Counted from the stretch's first letter, positions 3,375 to 10,929 are shown. The stretch: DNA of 10,929 bases from Nitrosotalea sp. (GCA_050749285.1 JBOGQX010000022.1:1-10929), one strand, 5' to 3'. The notes: generated from the letters alone by a model not told the origin. Translations and numbers: made by a program.

Positions 3375-4031
3375 TTAGGATTCTGCTTTTCTATAAGCCT
3401 CTAATGCGGTAATCGCAAACGCGCCAGCAAGTAAGGAAAGTGGAATTGACAACCATAAAGCGTGTCTAAAGAAAACAAGATTGACAGTTTCAGCAGTCAA
3501 GATACAAACACTCTCGGCTGTAATCAAGACATACAGCGTTGTTTTCATTATTTGTTTAAAGTCAGGTGATTTGTATAATTGAGGAATCGACTTAACACCA
3601 ATTACAAAGTTGTTGAAGGTTGTTTTGATATTAGATACAAATCCATTATGTCCATCCTCTAAAGCAGAACAACAGCCATCAACTACTCGTTTTAAGTTAT
3701 ATCTTCCAAGTATCGTGGCAAATGTGGTAAATCCAGCAAGACCATAACCCAAAAGGTATGACATGGTAATTCCAAAAGGAGTTTTGAAACCAAACAAAAG
3801 GAAACTGCTATTCTGCCCTATCTCTGCTGATAAGATACAAAGGATCTCAATCCCTAATGCGGAAGCGTACATATTTTTTACATTACAAAAGAATCTAACG
3901 GTAGTATTGGATTCTTTTAGATGAATCTCTATACAGCAACAATCGTCTTTAATACAGAACTTACAGTCTTGTAGAGTTTGTTTACTGCATAATTCTGGAA
4001 TACATTCACAATCAGCACACTTGACGGACAA
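3375..4031 (-). CDS. membrane protein with a Cys-rich N-terminal segment (function unknown)
   Basis: About 4 hydrophobic helices (ALGIEILCILSAEIG, MSYLLGYGLAGFTTFATILG, TTLYVLITAESVCILTA, ALWLSIPLSLLAGAFAITAL). There are 9 Cys in the first 33 residues (CADCECIPELCSKQTLQDCKFCIKDDCCC). The start at 4031 is a TTG. The first ATG (3872) would remove the Cys-rich part. Confidence 0.5.
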   Translation of the reverse strand: MSVKCADCECIPELCSKQTLQDCKFCIKDDCCCIEIHLKESNTTVRFFCNVKNMYASALGIEILCILSAEIGQNSSFLLFGFKTPFGITMSYLLGYGLAGFTTFATILGRYNLKRVVDGCCSALEDGHNGFVSNIKTTFNNFVIGVKSIPQLYKSPDFKQIMKTTLYVLITAESVCILTAETVNLVFFRHALWLSIPLSLLAGAFAITALEAYRKAES

Positions 4032-4191
4032 TAGATGATGAATGTAGATTTACCTATTAAAACCATGTTTTGAATTTTTTGAGGCTAGTTTAATTAGATT
4101 TTGTGTTTCTTAATATGAAAATAAAAAATTGGGAGAGGGTTTTTTGGTTTCACCCAAATCACCTTCGGATTTTCCGGTTTGGAATGGATCC

Positions 4192-4218
4192 TGTCTCGGT
4201 CATGTGTGAGCCGAGACA
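4192..4218. other. 8-bp-stem inverted repeat in the GC-rich leader upstream of the integrase
   Basis: TGTCTCGG (4192-4199) and CCGAGACA (4211-4218) are exact reverse complements. The inner TCA/TGA can extend the stem with one bulged G. Confidence 0.5.
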
Positions 4219-4279
4219 CCACCCGGTCCACTTTTTGTATCGTTCGGAACCCCTTAAAAGCAACGAAAACTTTCACAAC

Positions 4280-5593
4280 ATGCAAAAATGTTTTAGACTT
4301 TTAGAAGACGATGATGTCAGAAGATGGTACGAGAATCTTTGTCGGGGAAGCAAGCTTACTGCCTCGGTAAGGCTGCGAAGACTGAACCTCTTCTGTATAC
4401 AGCACAAAACAACTCCAAAGGACCTGGTATCTATCGGAAAAGAGGATCCAAAAAAGCTTGAGGATATTTTACATGATCACGTGACAGATCTTGAATCAAA
4501 AAAATATGCGCCAAGCTACATCGAGGATATACTAAAGGCAGTCAGGTCGTGGTTCTCATACAACTATATCGAGCTGAAAAGAAAGATCAAGATAGCAAAC
4601 TCTGACATACCGGTAACACTACAGGACGAGAAGGTACCGTCAAAGCAGGAGCTCAAAGATATCCTAAATGCCGCAACAAGAAGGGCAAGAGCCAGTATCA
4701 GCCTGATGGCATTTGCAGGACTGCGACCTCAGGTTCTTGGAAAAGATGACGGCTCTGACGCATTGAGGATATCAGACATACCCGATCTAGTTGTGGAAAA
4801 AGATGCAGTACACTTCAAAAGAGTTCCTGCAATGATAACAGTACGACAGTCTCTTTCAAAGGCAGGACACAAGTACATCACATTTCTTACAAGCCAGGGG
4901 TGCCAGTATCTTCTTGGGTATCTCAAGGGTCGCATCATGACAGGAGAATCACTTGGACCAGACTCTCCTGTGATATCAGTAAGCAAGGGCTATGATAAAA
5001 AAGGAGGCAGAACAAGCAATCCAATAATCACAACGAAATGCATCACTGCAGAGATAAGAGATGCAATCTGGTCTGTCAAAAAGGCAAGGCCGTATGTGCT
5101 GAGATCATACTTTGATACCCAGCTTCTGCTGGCAGAAAGTCATGGAAGAATTGCACATGCATACAGGCAGTTCTTCATGGGACACAAGGGCGACATGGAA
5201 TCAAGGTACACAACTAACAAGGGAAGGCTGTCTGACGAGATGATAGAGGACATGAGAAGAACCTTTCAGCAAAGCGAGCAGTTTCTCTCCACAGACGAGA
5301 TACAGGAAAAGGACAAGAAGGAACTCCTCCTTGAGATGTGGCGCGAGCAGGCAAAACTCTACGGAATCAATCCACTAAAGATCAAGATAGAGAAGCAGAG
5401 AGATGAAGAAGGCACACCTGGTCTTGATGATGAAATTCTTGCAATAAAGGATGCAATTGTAAAATCAAGAGAGGAAAGGTATGAGGGAAAGCTGGTATCA
5501 GAAGACGAGCTTGTTGCGTTTATAGAGCAAGGGTGGGATATCATAAAAGAACTACAGAACGGCAAGGTCCTTGTGCGAAAGAGGGCTCTGTAG
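4280..5593 (+). CDS. tyrosine recombinase / integrase with a long C-terminal extension
   Basis: Catalytic signature read in order: AFAGLRPQVL (Arg I), HKYITFL (Lys region), YVLRSYFDT (Arg II box), FMGHKGDMESRYT (His and the nucleophilic Tyr at nt 5207-5209). A helical core-binding-like N-domain starts at MQKCFRLLEDDDVRRWYENL. The start is uncertain: ATG 4280 is preferred, with alternatives ATG 4184, ATG 4115 and GTG 4103. Confidence 0.85.
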   Translation: MQKCFRLLEDDDVRRWYENLCRGSKLTASVRLRRLNLFCIQHKTTPKDLVSIGKEDPKKLEDILHDHVTDLESKKYAPSYIEDILKAVRSWFSYNYIELKRKIKIANSDIPVTLQDEKVPSKQELKDILNAATRRARASISLMAFAGLRPQVLGKDDGSDALRISDIPDLVVEKDAVHFKRVPAMITVRQSLSKAGHKYITFLTSQGCQYLLGYLKGRIMTGESLGPDSPVISVSKGYDKKGGRTSNPIITTKCITAEIRDAIWSVKKARPYVLRSYFDTQLLLAESHGRIAHAYRQFFMGHKGDMESRYTTNKGRLSDEMIEDMRRTFQQSEQFLSTDEIQEKDKKELLLEMWREQAKLYGINPLKIKIEKQRDEEGTPGLDDEILAIKDAIVKSREERYEGKLVSEDELVAFIEQGWDIIKELQNGKVLVRKRAL

Positions 5594-5896
5594 AATCTTT
5601 AGTATGGATTCGATAACCTCTTCTTTTCTTCTGTAGGCCTTTTCTGATAGTACCGCAAGAAGTGCATTTACCAGTTCCTGATATGGCTCTATGGTATTAC
5701 AGACAAGATAATCGAGAAATTCGTGCCTTAGTGTCTGTACTGCTTTGTCGATCGTTTCAGAGTAGATGTATACCGTCCTTCCACATACCTCGCCCTCTTT
5801 TGTAGAATTGATATCAGGAATCCATCTGACCTGCAGTTCTTTTCCCTTTCCAGAGACTGCCCTGAGCCACGCAAGCTCTTCTTCAAGTCTGTCCAA
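5552..5896 (-). CDS. hypothetical protein (114 aa)
   Basis: ORF with only a TTG start (5896) and no internal Met. The sequence looks protein-like (…GRTVYIYSETIDKAVQTLRHEFLDYLV…), unlike its antisense partner 5766-5990. No family recognised. Its 3' end overlaps the integrase 3' end by 42 nt. Confidence 0.35.
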   Translation of the reverse strand: MDRLEEELAWLRAVSGKGKELQVRWIPDINSTKEGEVCGRTVYIYSETIDKAVQTLRHEFLDYLVCNTIEPYQELVNALLAVLSEKAYRRKEEVIESILKILQSPLSHKDLAVL

Positions 5897-6000
5897 TACA
5901 GATGATTCGGCTATTGCTTTTAAGGAGTTCAGCGATACGTGTCATCATGACATTCAAGATCTCTTACTCCATTATAGGGCCTCTGTATAACACTCAAATT

Positions 6001-6040
6001 CCTAAAGGTAGACTGAAAATTTTTTTAGCGTACCTTTAGG
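6001..6040. repeat. palindromic site A (10-bp perfect arms, 20-bp spacer)
   Basis: CCTAAAGGTA (6001-6010) and TACCTTTAGG (6031-6040) are exact reverse complements. The spacer is GACTGAAAATTTTTTTAGCG. It shares the core GACTGAAAATTTTTT and the half-site AAAGGTA with site B at 7870-7909. Confidence 0.8.
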
Positions 6041-6169
6041 AAAATCATTTCATGGAAACTCGCTGTTATGAAGAGCTTCTTGTTTTACACCATGGGAGCC
6101 AAGAGAAGTAAAAAAATTCTTCTGCTGAACTGAAAACGCGGGACAAAAGGCCTGAAATTATTGGTCGAT

Positions 6170-6203
6170 ATATACCAATCCGTATATATACGAGATGGTA
6201 TAT
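6170..6203. repeat. TATA-rich composite palindrome
   Basis: ATATACCA (6170-6177) and TGGTATAT (6196-6203) are reverse complements. They flank the self-complementary GTATATATAC (6182-6191). Confidence 0.7.
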
Positions 6204-6265
6204 GGTTTGAAAGTCTCACCACTTTGCCAAGATCTTTTCCAATAACAGCTCACTCTAAAGGGTCC

Positions 6266-6300
6266 ATTACGCCAAATGGCGTTACGCTAAACGGCGTAAC
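6266..6300. repeat. GC-rich cluster of four TTACGCC/GGCGTAA half-sites, able to form alternative hairpins
   Basis: ACGCCA (6269-6274) pairs with TGGCGT (6277-6282). GTTACGC (6281-6287) pairs with GCGTAAC (6294-6300). TTACGCC (6267-6273) can also pair with GGCGTAA (6293-6299). Confidence 0.7.
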
Positions 6301-6417
6301 ATGTGAAGATTCATTTGTCATAAAGTTCTGATTCCCGATTTTACTTTATAAAGCTATTTTACTTTATCAAATAATCCGCCCATCAATACATACTAATTCC
6401 TATAACAGGCGCCAAAT

Positions 6418-6456
6418 TGTAGACAATGTAGACATTTTTTGTCTACATTGTCGACT
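6418..6456. promoter_or_regulatory. 39-bp palindromic octamer array L at the 3' end of the ATPase gene
   Basis: TGTAGACA (6418-6425), A, TGTAGACA (6427-6434), TTTTT, TGTCTACA (6440-6447), T, TGTCGACT (6449-6456). The layout is 8-1-8-5-8-1-8. The ATPase stop codon (6443-6445) lies inside the third octamer. Confidence 0.8.
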
Positions 6457-7621
6457 TTCGTACAAGATACTGCTTTAGCAATGGAACAGAAAAACGGTAA
6501 ATTCCACGTTTGTAGTTATAAATCAGACCTTTCTCCTCAAGCCTTTTCATGTATTTTGACAATGTAGTTCGTTCCATTCTTGTCCTTTTCTTGATAAAAT
6601 CAAACGGGATGTCAGTAACAGTTGCGCCCGCCATGGCAATAATCACTTTTTGCTCATCGTCACTCAATATCTCTAGTCTAGGATCAAAAAAGTCATCATC
6701 AAGTTGTTTTGTAATCATAGGACTGATTCTGTCATAATTACTTAGGGAAATTTTCTTCTTATCACTCATATTGATTAACTCCTTACAGTAAAATTGAATA
6801 AAATATGGATACTGACCAGTTTCGGTGACAATCTTTTCAACAAGAGGTTTTTCAAATTTGTACTCGCTTTTATCTAGCGGCTTTGTAATTGCAAATGCTG
6901 CTTCTTCCTTGCCTAGATTTCCAACCTCCAATGATTTGTACATGCGTTCAGAATATGATCTTGCTTCTTTAATATTGAGATGGAGGTTTGGTAGACCGGA
7001 AAAAACTGCAAAATATTTACAGCCAGCCTTTTGCACTTCATTTAGCACTCCCATGAAATCAGAAAGAACAAACCACTTTTTGTATGGCACATCGTAGATT
7101 GAATGAAATTCGTCAAAAAGGAAGATGACTCCTTTGTAATTACTGTTTTCAAAGATTTTCCAATTCTTGGTAAGATACTCCTTCAGATGATCCTCAAATG
7201 GTACACCAGAAGCTGAACTGTATGACGGTTCATAATAGAAAACATCTGGAATTCCTACATGTTTCGGTCTAACATAAGAGAGAATTGAAGTAAACTTGTC
7301 TTTTATTCGCTTGACTCTGGAAAATGTACCCATTGCAGTCTTTATGTCGTATTTTAATGCCTTGGTAAACTCATCTGGATCACAGTATTTCTTACTAAAC
7401 TGTGCTCTCTTAATAGGAAGAAATCCATGACTTACACACAACTTACTAAATTCTTCCATGAGAACCGTTTTTCCAGTACCTCGTAAACCATATACTATCA
7501 GATTCTCAACATGACCGTCATTAATGCTCTTTAACATTTGTTCAAACCTTGCCAAATGTTCTTGCCTCCCAGCAAGATAAGGAGGAGGCGCTCCTGAACC
7601 GGGATTGAATGGATTATTCAT
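6443..7621 (-). CDS. AAA+ ATPase with C-terminal winged-helix domain (archaeal ATPase / Orc1-Cdc6-like architecture)
   Basis: N-terminal FNPGSGAPPPYLAGRQEHLARFEQML, Walker A GLRGTGKT, Walker B VIFLFDEFH. The C-terminal wHTH-like segment is DEQKVIIAMAGA…TTLSKYMKRLEEKGLIYNYKRGIYRFSVPLLKQYL. I place the start at ATG 7621-7619 (MNNPFNPG). The track start at 7639 is a TTG inside the upstream palindrome. Confidence 0.85.
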   Translation of the reverse strand: MNNPFNPGSGAPPPYLAGRQEHLARFEQMLKSINDGHVENLIVYGLRGTGKTVLMEEFSKLCVSHGFLPIKRAQFSKKYCDPDEFTKALKYDIKTAMGTFSRVKRIKDKFTSILSYVRPKHVGIPDVFYYEPSYSSASGVPFEDHLKEYLTKNWKIFENSNYKGVIFLFDEFHSIYDVPYKKWFVLSDFMGVLNEVQKAGCKYFAVFSGLPNLHLNIKEARSYSERMYKSLEVGNLGKEEAAFAITKPLDKSEYKFEKPLVEKIVTETGQYPYFIQFYCKELINMSDKKKISLSNYDRISPMITKQLDDDFFDPRLEILSDDEQKVIIAMAGATVTDIPFDFIKKRTRMERTTLSKYMKRLEEKGLIYNYKRGIYRFSVPLLKQYLVRKSTM

Positions 7622-7660
7622 TGTAGACAATGTCGACAAATAATGTCTACATTGTCTACA
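7622..7660. promoter_or_regulatory. 39-bp palindromic octamer array R abutting the ATPase start codon (candidate operator)
   Basis: TGTAGACA (7622-7629), A, TGTCGACA (7631-7638), AATAA, TGTCTACA (7644-7651), T, TGTCTACA (7653-7660). It has the same 8-1-8-5-8-1-8 layout as array L and starts one base after the ATG (7619-7621). Confidence 0.8.
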
Positions 7661-7736
7661 TTATAAGCAGTGTGGAGTCTATGGATTCACTGATGAATTA
7701 TTTGCAGAATGGCTTAAACTGTCTGATTCCTTGTAA
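7644..7736 (+). pseudogene. relic of the C-terminus of a second, paralogous ATPase/wHTH gene
   Basis: The plus frame is open from 7644 to TAA (7734-7736) with no start codon. It ends …YKQCGVYGFTDELFAEWLKLSDSL*, which aligns with the intact ATPase C-terminus YKR-GIYRFSVPLLKQYLVRKSTM*. That gives 7 identities in 23 aligned positions plus V/I, T/S, F/L, W/Y and Q/R pairs, with stops in the same column. Confidence 0.4.
7661..7666 (-). promoter_or_regulatory. candidate TATA box for the ATPase gene
   Basis: TTATAA lies immediately upstream (minus-strand sense) of palindrome R, about 40 nt from the ATG. A start site roughly 25 nt downstream would fall inside the palindrome. Confidence 0.35.
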
Positions 7737-7761
7737 ACTTTACAACTTGTAAACTTTACAA
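7730..7761. repeat. perfect 16-bp tandem duplication forming a 35-bp near-palindrome
   Basis: CTTGTAAACTTTACAA occurs at 7730-7745 and again at 7746-7761. Each unit contains TTGTA-N6-TACAA. The span 7729-7763 equals its reverse complement except at three central C/G positions. Confidence 0.85.
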
Positions 7762-7869
7762 GGATCGGCTACCATGGTCTGACAAGGCAGATCTAATAGT
7801 CAAAGAAGACCCCATACTGTCAAACAAGAGAGGTTTTTGAAAAATGTGATACCTCCACAAGGTAATTTT

Positions 7870-7909
7870 CCTACGTTTGGACTGAAAATTTTTTCAGCCC
7901 AAAGGTAGG
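7870..7909. repeat. palindromic site B (related to site A)
   Basis: CCTACGTTTGG (7870-7880) and CCAAAGGTAGG (7899-7909) match 10 of 11 as reverse complements. The centre is ACTGAAAATTTTTTCAGC, with CTGAAAA/TTTTCAG itself palindromic. It shares GACTGAAAATTTTTT with site A. Confidence 0.75.
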
Positions 7910-8078
7910 ATTTTGGGTATTACACGGGCTTGGTGTATGTGATAAACAAAGAGGTGACATTATAACAGAAAAAATTACATTATTGAAATCTTCACACAAC
8001 GAGTTCTTTAAAGCATGCAAATCACCTCCCGTATTTTTCTCCTTTTAACTTGTTGCAAACTGTATTTCTGAAGATATT

Positions 8079-9017
8079 GTGTACTTTATCAGAAAGATAA
8101 GAAGGACCAAAAAGCGTATAGACAAGAGCTCGTTTATCGTATCTATTCCAAAAAAGTTACAACAAAAGCTGGAATCTCACAATCAAGAAATAGCAGCAAG
8201 GCTTGCAAATTTTTCACGGTTACGCTATTTTTACGATGATACCGAAGGCTCTAGGTGCTTTCTATTGGTACTATGGAGCAGCGAACTGCCACCAAATTAT
8301 GCATCTGACAAGACCAAGACAACCACAATACAGAAGAGCGGCAGGACAAGCAGGTATGTTATCATACCAAGGAAGGTGTGCTACAGGTACGGGTGGGGCG
8401 CGGGAACCGAGCTTGTGATTGGACTTGATTATGATATGGATGAATATGTGCAGGGTACAATATACAAGGACGGTGACTTTGTACCATCAGAAAAAGATCC
8501 TGAGCCCTGTGTCATAAAATTCCAGAGGTACCAGGACATGAAGAAGTTGTACAGTGCAAGACTTGAAAAGAAAAAGGAAGATCTTGCAAGGCAGGAAAGT
8601 GACGCATACTGGTCTACCCGCAACAAACCATCCAATTATGGTATCATCATGGACAGGATAAATTATGAAAGAAAGAACATACACAAGCTTGTCTGGAACC
8701 GACTGTTGCAGATGAACCTTGTCGCAATATCGTACACTGACTTTGTAAAGCTCAGGTCAGAGAAGGAAAGGGAGAAGAAGAAAAAGAGAAAAGAATTTCT
8801 GCAGAAAAGATATGGTAACAGGTCAACGTGGCAATACAGAAAGGATATCGTCAGGACCGGCAAGAGTTATGGATATGATTACGATGCACGGCGCGAGAGC
8901 ATCTTGGATGATCCTGATGCGTATCTAGAGGCAAAGAGTGACGATCCTGAGCTATACGGAGAGGAAAGATCTGAGAGCAAAAGCTCGTACCATGAAGATG
9001 AATCTGAAGACTTCTAG
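8079..9017 (+). CDS. hypothetical protein with two AbrB-like motifs, a K/E-rich central region and an acidic C-terminal tail (candidate adaptor of the actin-like ATPase)
   Basis: GTG start, 312 aa. SSFIVSIPKKLQQKL and TSRYVIIPRKVCYRYGWGAGTELVIGL resemble the x-V-x-I-P-K/R-K strand-turn of SpoVT/AbrB domains. A charged helical segment follows (EKEREKKKKRKEFLQKR). The tail is DDPELYGEERSESKSSYHEDESEDF. It stops 32 nt before the next gene. Confidence 0.5.
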   Translation: MYFIRKIRRTKKRIDKSSFIVSIPKKLQQKLESHNQEIAARLANFSRLRYFYDDTEGSRCFLLVLWSSELPPNYASDKTKTTTIQKSGRTSRYVIIPRKVCYRYGWGAGTELVIGLDYDMDEYVQGTIYKDGDFVPSEKDPEPCVIKFQRYQDMKKLYSARLEKKKEDLARQESDAYWSTRNKPSNYGIIMDRINYERKNIHKLVWNRLLQMNLVAISYTDFVKLRSEKEREKKKKRKEFLQKRYGNRSTWQYRKDIVRTGKSYGYDYDARRESILDDPDAYLEAKSDDPELYGEERSESKSSYHEDESEDF

Positions 9018-9049
9018 TTTCCTTTTAAACTATATTCGATTTCTATAAC

Positions 9050-9916
9050 ATGGCATGCGAGAACCATGATGATATAGTAGCAATAGATGCTGGAACGGGA
9101 TTTGTAAAATGTGTCTCTGCGCACATGCGGGTATCATTCCCATCCATATATGGAACAAGACGACTGACAAGATGGGAGGATCCAAAGGAAGGAACGGTCG
9201 AAGCTGTAGGATACGAGGCAGTCAAGATGTCAACCTATCCTGATACCGTATTGGTAAGGGCTGTGCTTGAGGGCAGGATAGCAGAAGAGAAGGCCTTTGT
9301 AGCTATCATCAGGGAGGCAGTTAGAATGCTTGGATGTGAGCGCGATCTTGGATCGTTTGTTGTTGTAATGGGCCTTCCATATGGTGCAGCGCAGCAGAAA
9401 CAGTACCTTGAGAAATTAGTAGAGCGAATCTTAAAGCCAAGGCAGGTGCTTGTCATACCGCAATCGATTGGCACGCTCCTGTCGGAAGATGCAAGGACTG
9501 GTATGGTACTCTCGATAGGGCAGGGAACTACAGAGCTTGTCCTCTTTGAAGACCTCAAGCCAGTTGCCGGAATCTCGATTCCGCAAGCTTGTGACTATCT
9601 GTACGAAGATCTTGCATATCTTGAACATGAAAAAAATACTGCAGACAAGAAAAAAATAGATGCACTGACTACAATTCTTGCCAACAAGCTTGCAGTCTTC
9701 AAGACCAGACTGAACAAGGAATATGACATCTACATGTCAGGTGGGGGAGTGCTTGTAGAGGGACTGTGCGAGTCTTTACATGCCAAGGTCCACGACAAAC
9801 TCAAGATTGTAAAAGATCCACTCTACTCTAACGCGACAGGACTCTACAAGCTTGGCGGGATGGTATCGTTACCATCATCTAGTACTGAAGGTCAGCAAGC
9901 GATATTCCACCCATAA
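9050..9916 (+). CDS. actin-fold ATPase, ParM/MreB-like (candidate segregation NTPase)
   Basis: Actin-fold motifs appear in order: phosphate-1 IVAIDAGTGFVK, SFPSIYG, VVVMGLPYG, VLVIPQSIGTLL, phosphate-2 VLSIGQGTTELVLF, adenosine IYMSGGGVLV, and the C-terminal DPLYSNATGLYKLG. Confidence 0.75.
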   Translation: MACENHDDIVAIDAGTGFVKCVSAHMRVSFPSIYGTRRLTRWEDPKEGTVEAVGYEAVKMSTYPDTVLVRAVLEGRIAEEKAFVAIIREAVRMLGCERDLGSFVVVMGLPYGAAQQKQYLEKLVERILKPRQVLVIPQSIGTLLSEDARTGMVLSIGQGTTELVLFEDLKPVAGISIPQACDYLYEDLAYLEHEKNTADKKKIDALTTILANKLAVFKTRLNKEYDIYMSGGGVLVEGLCESLHAKVHDKLKIVKDPLYSNATGLYKLGGMVSLPSSSTEGQQAIFHP

Positions 9917-10187
9917 TGACGTTCTCCTTTTCTTTTGTTACTTGATTTACGGATTCGACTGTGACAGTATCATGCTTGTTACTTTCTGTACTACCGCCAA
10001 GAATCCTATTTTCTTTTGATACTACAAACCTGTTCTCTTCAAGCTTGAAGTAGAGTACGCCACCTTTCTCAATATGCAGCGCTTTGCAGATCTTTCTTGG
10101 TATCGTGACCGCAAGCGAGTGCTTGGGCTCACGCCCAATCTTTACCACACGTCTTGCATAGATTTTGGATATAGTACTATACAACAA
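9879..10187 (-). CDS. AbrB/SpoVT-type DNA-binding protein (102 aa)
   Basis: ARRVVKIGREPKHSLAVTIPRKICKALHIEKGGVLYFKLEENRFVVSKE matches the SpoVT-AbrB swapped-hairpin pattern. TTG start at 10187, with GTG 10151 as an alternative. Its 3' end overlaps the actin-like gene by 38 nt. Confidence 0.65.
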   Translation of the reverse strand: MLYSTISKIYARRVVKIGREPKHSLAVTIPRKICKALHIEKGGVLYFKLEENRFVVSKENRILGGSTESNKHDTVTVESVNQVTKEKENVIMGGISLADLQY

Positions 10188-10217
10188 GATGAAAACTACA
10201 GAAACTTAAAAACCATA

Positions 10218-10257
10218 AAAAACTATATGGTTTTGCCTCCAAAAACTATATGGTTTT
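10218..10257. promoter_or_regulatory. two direct copies of the 17-bp near-palindrome AAAAACTATATGGTTTT (candidate operator/centromere, overlapping the AbrB promoter)
   Basis: Copies lie at 10218-10234 and 10241-10257, 23 bp apart. A partial inverted half-site AAAACCATA sits at 10209-10217. Copy 1 lies 31-47 bp upstream of the TTG start of the minus-strand AbrB gene and contains a TATA-like core. Confidence 0.6.
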
Positions 10258-10473
10258 TCCTGCTGCACTATGTAGCTTTTCCGACAAAACCAAGGTATCC
10301 ATTCAGAAAAAAGTAAGGAAATCTGATGCTCAAGAACAGTCCATGCGTAAAAATTTCCTTGTTTTTGCCAAAAAAGCGCTTTACCGCCATATTATACGTA
10401 TTTTATTTTTTATTTTCTTTTTTCTTTGTGCAGTTTTACCATCTTGACTTTCTATCTAGTTTTCTTTCTCTTG

Positions 10474-10490
10474 AAAACCATATAGTTTTT
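10474..10490. repeat. inverted third copy of the 17-bp near-palindrome
   Basis: AAAACCATATAGTTTTT is the exact reverse complement of AAAAACTATATGGTTTT. Confidence 0.8.
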
Positions 10491-10680
10491 AGATTACCAT
10501 TTTTCTGTTGTTTTTACATTTGATCTGCAATCTCTTTTCTCCTAGAATTCTCCTTTCTGCTTATTCTACTCTAATTCTCATCTCTCTAACTTTTTCTTTT
10601 CCATTATCATTCCTGCCTATCTGAATACTGCACCAAGATCTAATACATCAAGTACGCCATCACCATTGATATCACCAGAT

Positions 10681-10929
10681 TCAATAGTTCCTTTCCTTTC
10701 GTGTTCTTCGTATACCAGCTTTAGGTACTTTGCCTAACACAAGACGAGGAATATCATATCGTTTTTCCTTCCCGTACCACTCGTACAGGTCCTTGTCGCT
10801 CTTTGAGAGGTTGCATCTCTGGCAAGCCTGTGCCATGTTGTCTATAGTATCTGGACCTCCTTTTGACCTTGGAATGATATGTTCCCAGTGAAGATTCTCG
10901 GTACTTCGGACGCTTGTACGTCCATACAT
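10681..10929 (-). CDS. HNH endonuclease (probably truncated at the window edge)
   Basis: HWEHIIPRSKGGPDTIDNMAQACQRCNLSKSDK matches the HNH pattern (H-x-x-H-I-x-P-x-x-x-G-G…N…C-x-x-C-N-x-x-K). The reading frame reaches the last base of the window, so the true start may lie beyond it. Confidence 0.8.
   Translation of the reverse strand: MYGRTSVRSTENLHWEHIIPRSKGGPDTIDNMAQACQRCNLSKSDKDLYEWYGKEKRYDIPRLVLGKVPKAGIRRTRKERNY

Follow-up and report, generated by a model that had tools for sequence, protein, structure and literature searches.

The stretch of DNA analysed here, called the window in what follows, comprises 10,929 nt from Nitrosotalea sp. (GCA_050749285.1 JBOGQX010000022.1:1-10929), and all coordinates are counted from its first letter. 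Near its right end lies a compact module of about 2.5 kb, composed of three protein genes and three short palindromic sites, which may constitute an actin-driven cassette for the partition or positioning of mobile DNA. The first open reading frame (ORF; 8079-9017, plus strand, GTG start) encodes a lineage-restricted protein of 312 aa, a candidate accessory factor, whose homologues begin with MYFIRK and an ATG codon. It is separated by a gap of 32 nt (9018-9049) from the gene of a 288-aa actin-like NTPase on the same strand (9050-9916), the proposed filament-forming motor, and the two genes are presumably co-transcribed. The third ORF (9879-10187, minus strand) encodes a 102-aa protein of the AbrB/MazE/SpoVT fold, the proposed centromere-binding adaptor and analogue of ParR; it runs in convergent orientation to the actin gene, the two sharing 38 nt (9879-9916). 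The codons of the C-terminal tail of this protein, G-I-S-L-A-D-L-Q-Y (9882-9908, minus strand), a putative actin-docking peptide, overlap the 3' end of the actin gene. Beyond the AbrB gene there are a palindrome pair AAAACTATATGGTTTT (10219-10257) and a third palindrome copy AAAACCATATAGTTTT (10474-10489), 232 bp past the second one, with a conserved non-coding block (10305-10413) between them; these three features are strand-neutral. The three ORFs, the 32-nt gap and the convergent position of the AbrB gene, as listed in an initial annotation of the stretch, were confirmed. Over 5,480 nt (5450-10929) the window matches, with 0 mismatches, a contig of 12.9 kb from the Nitrosopumilaceae metagenome-assembled genome (MAG) GCA_975255945.1.

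The comparison included 108 related loci, labelled L001, L002 and so on, and the actin family was split into clades by gene neighbourhood. Clade A, in which the actin is 65-100% identical to that of the window, has the 312-aa gene upstream and the convergent AbrB gene downstream. This triad was found to be conserved at about 30 loci, all from Thaumarchaeota of the Nitrosotalea lineage: at 15 of the 16 evaluable loci from genomes and MAGs and, in an independent scan seeded with the 312-aa protein, at 15 of the 16 evaluable loci from metagenomes. The triad genes are the most widely shared genes of the clade-A loci. The source-named homologues of the actin come from Thaumarchaeota (Nitrosotalea, Nitrosopumilaceae), save that of L066, which is titled as an uncultured Gammaproteobacteria bin, and several divergent actin copies occur per genome, with at least six in the MAG REEA70.

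The five nucleotide-binding motifs of the actin fold (phosphate 1, connect 1, phosphate 2, adenosine and connect 2), already noticed in the 288-aa protein by the initial annotation, are present, and DxGTGFVK, IGQGTTE, SGGG and SNAxGLY are invariant in 38 aligned family members. In Pfam the protein matched MreB_Mbl with 36.8 bits (gathering cut-off, GA, 27) and ALP_N with 31.7 bits (GA 26.3), both above cut-off, and the same two families were matched by 38/38 relatives (E<=0.01). The best match in any profile library, near full length, was PHROG 691 (phrog_691), 'partition protein', with 55.7 bits and E 8.9e-15. The AlphaFold (AF2) model has a predicted local distance difference test (pLDDT) score of 87, and its top 50 Foldseek matches in the PDB were MreB, MamK and actin at E~1e-16, plus two integrative MreB-family models, kinases and Hsp70 being absent from these 50. 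The family profile ranked the PDB sequences in the order MreB (48.7 bits), MamK, Arp2 with ParM (3js6), and other actins, EutJ reaching 25 bits in the same search. The NCBIfam ParM model (PRK13917) gave 23 bits against a cut-off of 417, and NCBI labels some of the homologues 'ParM/StbA family protein'. The Pfam, PHROG, Foldseek, PDB-profile and NCBIfam scores thus place the actin in the polymerising branch of the superfamily, yet outside every named family; it groups with filament formers and not with kinases, EutJ or chaperones. Two findings had been named that would tell against an actin-based module, an affiliation of the 288-aa protein with sugar-kinase, EutJ or chaperone-type enzymes and a lack of co-occurrence of the three genes; neither was obtained, since the actin classes with the polymerising actins and the triad co-occurs.

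The region of subdomain IIB comprises about 31 residues, compared with about 86 in MreB, and is therefore about 55 aa shorter; two short helices occupy its place in the model, and the length of the family actins ranges from 272 to 290 aa. AlfA, an actin of 275 aa without subdomain IIB, still forms filaments and segregates the plasmid pLS32 (bioRxiv 10.1101/190744). Since an actin lacking this subdomain works, the short length is no argument against filaments, and we infer that the 288-aa protein would form them with nucleotide. Its last 14 residues or so are disordered (pLDDT <50), variable, and missing from some orthologues and from the sister clades.

The label 'rod shape-determining protein MreB' would make the actin a host cytoskeletal or cell-shape protein with unrelated neighbours, and MreB is its best match among both Pfam families and PDB sequences. 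The NCBIfam MreB models, however, gave only 29-37 bits against cut-offs of 293-515, up to six or more divergent copies are found per genome, the gene sits in tRNA-bounded, integrase-bearing islands (see below) in which nearly all genes are ORFans, and the fixed partners occur only together with an actin of this family. A cytoskeletal role is regarded as extremely improbable.

The assignment of the 102-aa protein to AbrB/SpoVT was borne out by its family: PF04014 (MazE/AbrB) was matched by 13 of 14 members (E<=0.01; best 6.6e-6), the window protein itself scoring 24.1 bits, slightly below the cut-off of 24.7. The homologues are named AbrB, MazE or SpoVT by NCBI, and one of them has a precomputed PF04014 assignment. 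The alignment consists of three parts, namely a conserved N-terminal domain (KIYARxVMKMGREPxHSLMVTIPRKICxxLQIEKGTxLYFKLEENRFVVSKD), a linker of some 30 residues that varies among the members and a near-invariant C-terminal tail, G-I/V-S-L-A-D/E-L-Q-Y. The gene was found at every clade-A locus with a long enough contig; it is convergent with the actin gene at all evaluable clade-A loci, and the 3' ends overlap in nearly all of them. At L013 and L014 the actin stops at 272 aa, before the overlap, and the AbrB tail ...DGISLADLQY is retained. As the end of the actin is variable and disordered, absent in the sister clades and missing at these two loci, the constraint on the tail apparently acts on the AbrB frame.

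An arrangement of the same kind is found in arcadin-2, in which an unconserved linker joins the core to a short, conserved peptide at the C-terminus; this peptide docks in the hydrophobic groove of crenactin, and the same groove on ParM is used by ParR (ParM:ParR 4A62; PMC5173319). Because of its domain-linker-tail design, and because clade B1, described below, has in the corresponding place an unrelated small protein that ends in a similar tail and is accompanied by repeats of its own, the small AbrB protein, rather than the 312-aa protein, is probably the better analogue of ParR. The 'adaptor first' gene order of the initial annotation is therefore probably wrong, the small convergent protein fitting the role better. 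A literature search yielded no paper that links AbrB to ParM adaptors.

MazE-type antitoxins neutralise toxins through their C-terminal tails. The tailed AbrB/MazE-fold protein might be taken for an antitoxin belonging to a toxin-antitoxin addiction module by which the element is stabilised, the more so as its best Pfam family is MazE_antitoxin and JGI names some of the homologues MazE or PrlF antitoxins. Against this, there is no toxin gene in the operon, only the convergent actin gene being located downstream of the AbrB gene; the MazF, VapC, Doc and YhaV families were unmatched among the scanned neighbouring proteins, and NCBIfam doc_partner gave 16 bits against a cut-off of 55.9. An antitoxin is considered very unlikely.

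The near-palindromes noted earlier in the promoter region of the AbrB gene proved to be real. They are three copies of the 16-bp palindrome AAAACYATATRGTTTT (10219-10234, 10242-10257 and 10474-10489), conserved in position and number and found nowhere else in the window, where 0.04 matches were expected and 0/200 shuffles reached three. The two proximal copies are 23 bp apart, start to start, and lie 32 and 55 nt 5' of the AbrB start codon. A pair with the same spacing is present in L002, L003, L005, L013, L014, L020, L023, L024 and L025 as well as in most metagenome loci. The full 2+1 layout, that is a pair 23-24 bp apart and a distal site, was found at 9 of 15 non-redundant clade-A loci and at about half of the metagenome loci, and another four of these 15 retain two sites. 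The third site is 211-251 bp from the nearest proximal one at 12 of the 15 and occurs in the metagenome loci too. Within 8-20 kb of the clade-A loci the palindromes are usually the sole matches. They are proposed to be the binding sites of the AbrB protein, as operator and/or centromere.

The block at 10305-10413 (about 100 nt) is more conserved than the flanking genes among about 25 related loci. It contains an invariant 9-bp inverted repeat, AAGGAAAT.../...ATTTCCTT, around a 29-nt spacer of fixed length and variable sequence; the arms are preceded by CGTATAATATGGCGG and an A-rich tract, and a TATA-like, A/T-rich tract is also present. The block may act as promoter or origin, or may be bound by the 312-aa or another protein. 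Two other assignments were rejected. As an RNA, it gave in Rfam only a chance match to mir-52 (E 0.85), and RNAalifold predicted a 9-bp invariant stem without covariation. As a micro-ORF starting with MAVKRFFGKNKEIF..., it showed a substitution load by codon position of 91/139/126, early stops in 5 of 26 sequences and one frameshift.

The 312-aa family comprises 72 homologues, none with a Pfam domain, and all source-named ones belong to Thaumarchaeota, Nitrosopumilaceae or Nitrosotalea. A profile search of 1.84 billion representatives recovered only the family itself, and sequence searches against PDB, Pfam and NCBIfam gave no match. The AF2 model (pLDDT 77) consists of two consecutive β-β-α-β-β units (residues 1-150), long K/E-rich helices that are very basic near 230-245 (residues 151-259) and a disordered acidic tail (residues 258-312), in which the motifs LDDPD(S/A)Y and DDPE(L/T)Y are conserved and an acidic end is frequent. 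The K/E-rich helix and the acidic tail of the initial annotation are therefore recognisable in the model. Of the two AbrB-like motifs that it had also described, the second is supported, since the unit containing it (about 84-117) aligned with the small AbrB family in hhalign with a probability of 85% and P 6.5e-6; the first is suggestive, its unit aligning weakly with AbrB (P 0.011), and a comparison of half with half gave P 0.042. Foldseek searches of the model against PDB and BFVD gave no significant match, a riboflavin-synthase barrel and 2d9r appearing weakly at E 0.1-0.2. The 312-aa gene is absent from clade B, and also from L014, where the actin and AbrB genes remain.

The intergenic region 5' of the 312-aa gene in the window contains three strong inverted repeats. 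The first (7622-7660) is a 17-nt repeat covering the start of an ATPase gene, the second (7728-7764) consists of two tandem copies of the self-palindromic CTTGTAAACTTTACAA, and the third (7869-7910) is a hairpin with 20-nt arms. Since the regions 5' of the 312-aa gene vary among the loci, these repeats are probably specific to the element of the window.

The sister clades carry cassettes of parallel construction. In clade B1 (24 loci; actin 33-40% identical to that of the window) an unrelated gene for a protein of 84-105 aa lies directly downstream of the actin gene on the same strand. The product, of about 95 aa, is unrelated to AbrB (hhalign probability 0.2%) and has a conserved N-terminal domain, a variable linker and one of the tails SLSKFENW, LLDALENW or SILDMNKMA. 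Directly after this small gene, at seven loci, the repeat CTCCTTAAGCC with the core palindrome CTTAAG occurs in 2-3 copies (three in 6/7) at 30-31 bp spacing (L009:9183-9262, L027:7166-7249, L028:7149-7243, L029:7137-7220, and also L010, L030 and L034); the motif was found in only 7 of the 108 loci and always at this position. The array is a candidate centromere of clade B1. From its place after the small gene it follows that the order actin gene, small DNA-binding gene, repeat array is common to clades A and B1. To judge from these comparisons, the DNA-binding domain, the gene orientation and the repeats are exchanged between the two clades.

In clade B2 (actin 29-36% identical to that of the window) the actin gene is followed directly, in an ICE-like (integrative and conjugative element) setting, by the gene of a TrwB/VirD4-like ATPase of about 1,040 aa. 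This protein showed TrwB_AAD_bind, TraG-D_C and FtsK-HerA-type P-loop matches and resembles the VirD4 coupling protein; the pair is located at L007:8884-12003 and recurs in L052, L053, L054, L059, L060, L064, L067, L068, L074 and L081, and a small adaptor gene is absent between its two members. The adjacency of the actin gene to a VirD4-like gene suggests a link of the actin to archaeal conjugation.

A natural variant without actin gene was met at L092:1108-2730, on a metagenome contig too short to show whether a clade-B actin lies nearby. Here 111 nt separate the 312-aa gene from a convergent AbrB gene, beyond which lie the three palindromes. The AbrB protein ends in ...WDERLLASLENW (LLASLENW), a tail of the clade-B adaptor type, in place of ...SLADLQY, and the tails therefore appear to be modular.

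The genomic surroundings showed that the module is cargo of tRNA-integrating elements and not a free-standing chromosomal or plasmid system. At the clade-A loci tyrosine integrase genes are found 3-5 kb upstream of the module, and genes of tRNA-Ser, Val, Gly, His or Leu a few kb upstream; the tRNA gene stands directly beside the integrase gene in L003 and L005, the two loci whose gene calls permit the comparison. In L005 a 19-bp direct repeat of the 3' end of tRNA-Val (3531-3549 and 14713-14731) bounds an 11.2-kb element that bears the triad, with an actin 65% identical to that of the window. A second integrase gene begins right at the second repeat copy, so that the attachment repeat lies at the 5' end of a homologous integrase gene. 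On the near-identical 46.5-kb contig L091, which belongs to the same cluster, a second triad with an actin 86% identical lies behind a homologous integrase gene. We infer that L005 and L091 contain two related elements in tandem, each with its own triad. Nearly all genes of the clade-A elements are ORFans without family assignment.

In the window the integrase is represented by a tyrosine recombinase with a weak XerA match (4103-5593, plus strand), the true start of which is probably near 4280, the long N-terminal extension from 4103 presumably remaining untranslated. The G+C content climbs from about 0.30-0.36 to 0.39-0.46 near position 4,000. The 496-aa recombinase and an overlapping antisense ORF of 114 aa form a conserved pair (window 4103-5896; L005, L022, L048, L056 and L091; 62-80% identity), which adjoins actin loci of both clades A and B and often abuts a tRNA or tRNA-like sequence. 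The window has no tRNA gene, and no direct repeat links its integrase-proximal region to the 7.4 kb downstream that are available from L001.

A protein family of about 300 aa is also common to the elements of clade A (9 loci) and clade B (17 loci), for instance L002:5305-6234, L005:5225-6136, L007:7075-7965 and their relatives. It has the motif (L/M)TVRQI(F/Y)Y(R/Q)LVS and gave weak Pfam matches to JetD_C/DUF2399 (Toprim-type) and none in PDB or NCBIfam. The motif would resemble the catalytic-tyrosine region of Top6A/Spo11, and the family may be Spo11/Top6A-like.

The fold classes, the conservation of the triad, the sites and the tail, the integration context and the parallel cassettes of the sister clades were computed here. 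They are best explained, with a probability that we would put at about one half, by a type II-like (actin-driven) DNA partition or positioning cassette on small tRNA-integrating elements of ammonia-oxidising archaea of the Nitrosotalea lineage. In such a cassette the IIB-reduced 288-aa actin would polymerise with nucleotide, and the AbrB-fold protein would dimerise and bind the 16-bp palindromes, two adjacent and one about 230 bp off, giving a partition complex and probably also autoregulating its own expression. Through the flexible linker the tail G-I/V-S-L-A-D/E-L-Q-Y would reach the actin, the most probable place of contact being the hydrophobic groove in which ParR and arcadin-2 dock, and this docking would couple filament ends to the DNA of the element. 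The system would be relevant to the excised element at low copy number. The 312-aa protein could be a clade- and lineage-specific accessory, either a second DNA-binding or bridging factor or a regulator of the filament.

As in ParMRC of plasmid R1 (and of pSK41), an actin-fold NTPase is accompanied by a small protein for site-specific DNA binding and by short repeats, and docking of a C-terminal adaptor peptide in the hydrophobic groove of the actin is predicted here as well (PMC5173319). Unlike in ParMRC, the actin of the cassette has no PF06406 match and a reduced subdomain IIB, the adaptor has an AbrB fold where ParR is a ribbon-helix-helix protein, the adaptor gene points towards the actin gene and overlaps its end, the three palindromes (2+1) are found past the adaptor gene and not 5' of the motor gene, and there are a third conserved protein, of 312 aa, and an archaeal host. 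The AlfA/AlfB/parN system of the Bacillus plasmid pLS32 likewise combines an IIB-less actin of 275 aa with a small adaptor and a centromere of short repeats (bioRxiv 10.1101/190744), and the size of AlfA and the place of its deletion resemble those of the present family. The likeness shown here is one of size and deletion; the cassette actin keeps two short helices in place of IIB, and the adaptor fold and the gene order differ.

The closest functional precedent would be srpMRC of the SXT/R391 ICEs, an actin-type partition locus that is also carried by an integrating element and also stands beside an integrase gene; only the excised, low-copy form depends on it, and its SrpR is a small protein without recognisable domain that binds four repeats (PMC4489591). 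It differs in being bacterial, in its motor-then-adaptor order, in having its centromere 5' of srpM and in the lack of a third protein, and its function was shown experimentally, whereas the cassette is known from sequence. Crenactin and arcadin-2 of Pyrobaculum share with the cassette the succession of core, non-conserved linker and conserved C-terminal peptide, which recurs in the proteins with ...SLADLQY and ...SLSKFENW tails; arcadin-2, however, is a chromosomal cytoskeletal depolymeriser and no DNA-binding adaptor, and crenactin is full-size and eukaryote-like. A three-protein partition system made up of DNA binder, adaptor and motor is AspA-ParB-ParA of the Sulfolobus plasmid pNOB8, in which, unlike in the cassette, the motor is a Walker ParA ATPase and the DNA binder a winged-helix protein, with no homology to the cassette proteins.

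The same sites and neighbourhoods can be read in another way, with the AbrB protein being only a repressor or autoregulator at its own operator, its tail serving for oligomerisation or for another partner, and any adaptor being the 312-aa protein. AbrB/SpoVT regulators are common on archaeal mobile elements, with 20 'AbrB' annotations in the supplement on integrated mobile genetic elements (iMGE); two palindromes lie 30-60 bp 5' of the AbrB start, which is a promoter distance, and their consensus is common to co-resident elements. The 312-aa gene, which has the orientation of the actin gene and ends 32 nt before it, is almost always found together with it; one half of its product is AbrB-like, and the disordered tail of this product bears conserved acidic/aromatic motifs. 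At L092 AbrB and the sites are retained without the actin. On the other side, the AbrB gene is locked to the 3' end of the actin gene across the clade-A loci, with overlap in nearly all. The domain-linker-tail design fits the known actin adaptors, at the equivalent position clade B1 encodes small proteins that are unrelated, end in similar tails and come with repeat arrays of their own, and clade B is without any 312-aa homologue while L014 has the actin and AbrB genes without the 312-aa gene. On balance we hold the repressor interpretation to be unlikely.

Similarly unlikely, in our estimate, is an actin machine that serves replication or transfer, with filaments that position or transport excised DNA in the manner of AlpC/AlpA instead of segregating it at division. 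According to two reports (PMC5539076, PMC4446434), AlpC/AlpA/alpS of the Corynebacterium prophage CGP3 combines an actin-like protein with a DNA-binding adaptor on an integrated element and is needed for efficient viral DNA replication; like the cassette it is prophage- or element-borne, unlike it bacterial and devoted to viral DNA transport and replication, the cassette actin having no relatives in IMG/VR. The B2 actin gene is followed by the gene of the TrwB/VirD4-like ATPase of about 1,040 aa in ICE-like contexts with a prepilin-peptidase-like gene. An actin of this family was catalogued inside the ICE NitNCS1-E3: the supplement of Krupovic et al. 2019 lists arCOG06187, 'MreB, actin-like ATPase', and after it a hypothetical protein of 94 aa, the actin being undiscussed in their main text, and a literature search for arCOG06187 gave no papers. 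The block between the palindromes is moreover origin-like, with its A/T-rich tract and inverted repeat. On the other hand, the clade-A elements are small, the one in L005 measuring 11.2 kb; genes for conjugation were not recognised among their ORFs, those outside the cassette gave no Pfam match, and the layout of motor, tailed small DNA-binding protein and repeats corresponds to that of a partition system. Partition and a role in replication or transfer do not exclude each other.

Several points weigh against a partition or positioning cassette as preferred here. PF06406 (ParM/StbA), the family against which the initial annotation had suggested a check, was matched neither by the window actin at E<=1 nor by the 38 relatives at E<=0.01; IMG/VR contained no relatives of the actin, and no terminal repeats indicating a circular or episomal form were found on the contigs of the 108 loci. 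The best-conserved partner of the actin, the 312-aa protein, is left unexplained by a partition model. The palindromes are not 5' of the actin operon, and they are near-identical in co-resident elements with diverged proteins (50-70% identity); being few in number and shared in sequence by diverged elements, the three sites are more operator-like than fast-evolving centromeres. In one sub-lineage (L016, L017, L097 and L099) a gene for a 384-aa ATPase is inserted between the AbrB gene and the sites. L092, which has no actin gene, indicates that the motor is not required for the 312-aa gene, AbrB and the sites to be maintained. Polymerisation, DNA binding, the contact of tail and actin and the biological role have themselves been deduced from the computed features.

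The ATPase insertion has a further consequence, since it parts the site cluster from the AbrB gene, so that the cluster appears as a unit of its own and not merely as the AbrB promoter. In L097 the inserted gene was judged from its sequence to be a P-loop ATPase resembling the AAA_16-type ATPase of the window.

Mobile elements with an actin motor, its adaptor and a set of repeats are already known; the present combination is new in its archaeal host, its IIB-reduced actin of an unnamed family, its convergent and overlapping AbrB-fold adaptor, its orphan third protein and the signs of adaptor exchange between clades. We know of no actin-driven DNA segregation demonstrated on any archaeal plasmid, virus or integrated element. 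The known segregation systems of archaeal mobile elements and chromosomes use ParA-type motors (pNOB8, SegAB). To our knowledge, Salactin is the only archaeal actin studied in vivo that has a suspected role with DNA; it is chromosomal (PMC10746226). As the cassette is compact and has natural variants that can serve as controls (the actin-less locus, the locus without the 312-aa gene and the loci with swapped adaptors and tails), the positioning of archaeal mobile DNA in cells that divide by Cdv/ESCRT-III would become testable. If the proposed function is confirmed, the AbrB fold would join the ribbon-helix-helix (RHH), helix-turn-helix (HTH) and winged helix-turn-helix (wHTH) folds as a centromere-binding one, and a second working actin with reduced subdomain IIB would be known after AlfA. 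The findings bear on the mobile-element biology of the ammonia-oxidising archaea, a group of high abundance in soils and oceans with very few genetic tools.

It is tempting to speculate on a wider scheme, which we regard as doubtful, in which elements of the Nitrosopumilales would combine IIB-reduced actins with interchangeable adaptor cassettes, each consisting of a DNA-binding domain, a linker, a docking tail and its own repeats. The 'actin segrosome' of Nitrosotalea would then use the orphan tandem-AbrB/coiled-coil protein as a kinetochore-like bridge or as a nucleator, and in the ICE clades the actin would be wired to the VirD4-like ATPase, the filaments delivering DNA to an archaeal conjugation pore.

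Among the remaining features of the window, an ATPase of the AAA_16/PF01637 type with a C-terminal winged helix is encoded at 6443-7639 on the minus strand and belongs to the variable cargo of the element. An ORF at 758-1528, which lies outside the presumed mobile element, encodes a protein of 256 aa that begins with a hydrophobic N-terminal segment and contains some 25 G-x-y triplets of collagen type, the local G+C content reaching up to 0.48. At the right end an HNH endonuclease ORF (PF01844, 45.6 bits; 10681-10929, minus strand) runs off the window, and at the matching position of the identical MAG contig no gene was called. Past this end, L001:5879-12798 contains a gene of the Holliday-junction-endonuclease family and a type I CRISPR-Cas operon with Cas6, a 500-aa ORF, Cas7/DevR, Cas5d and Cas3.

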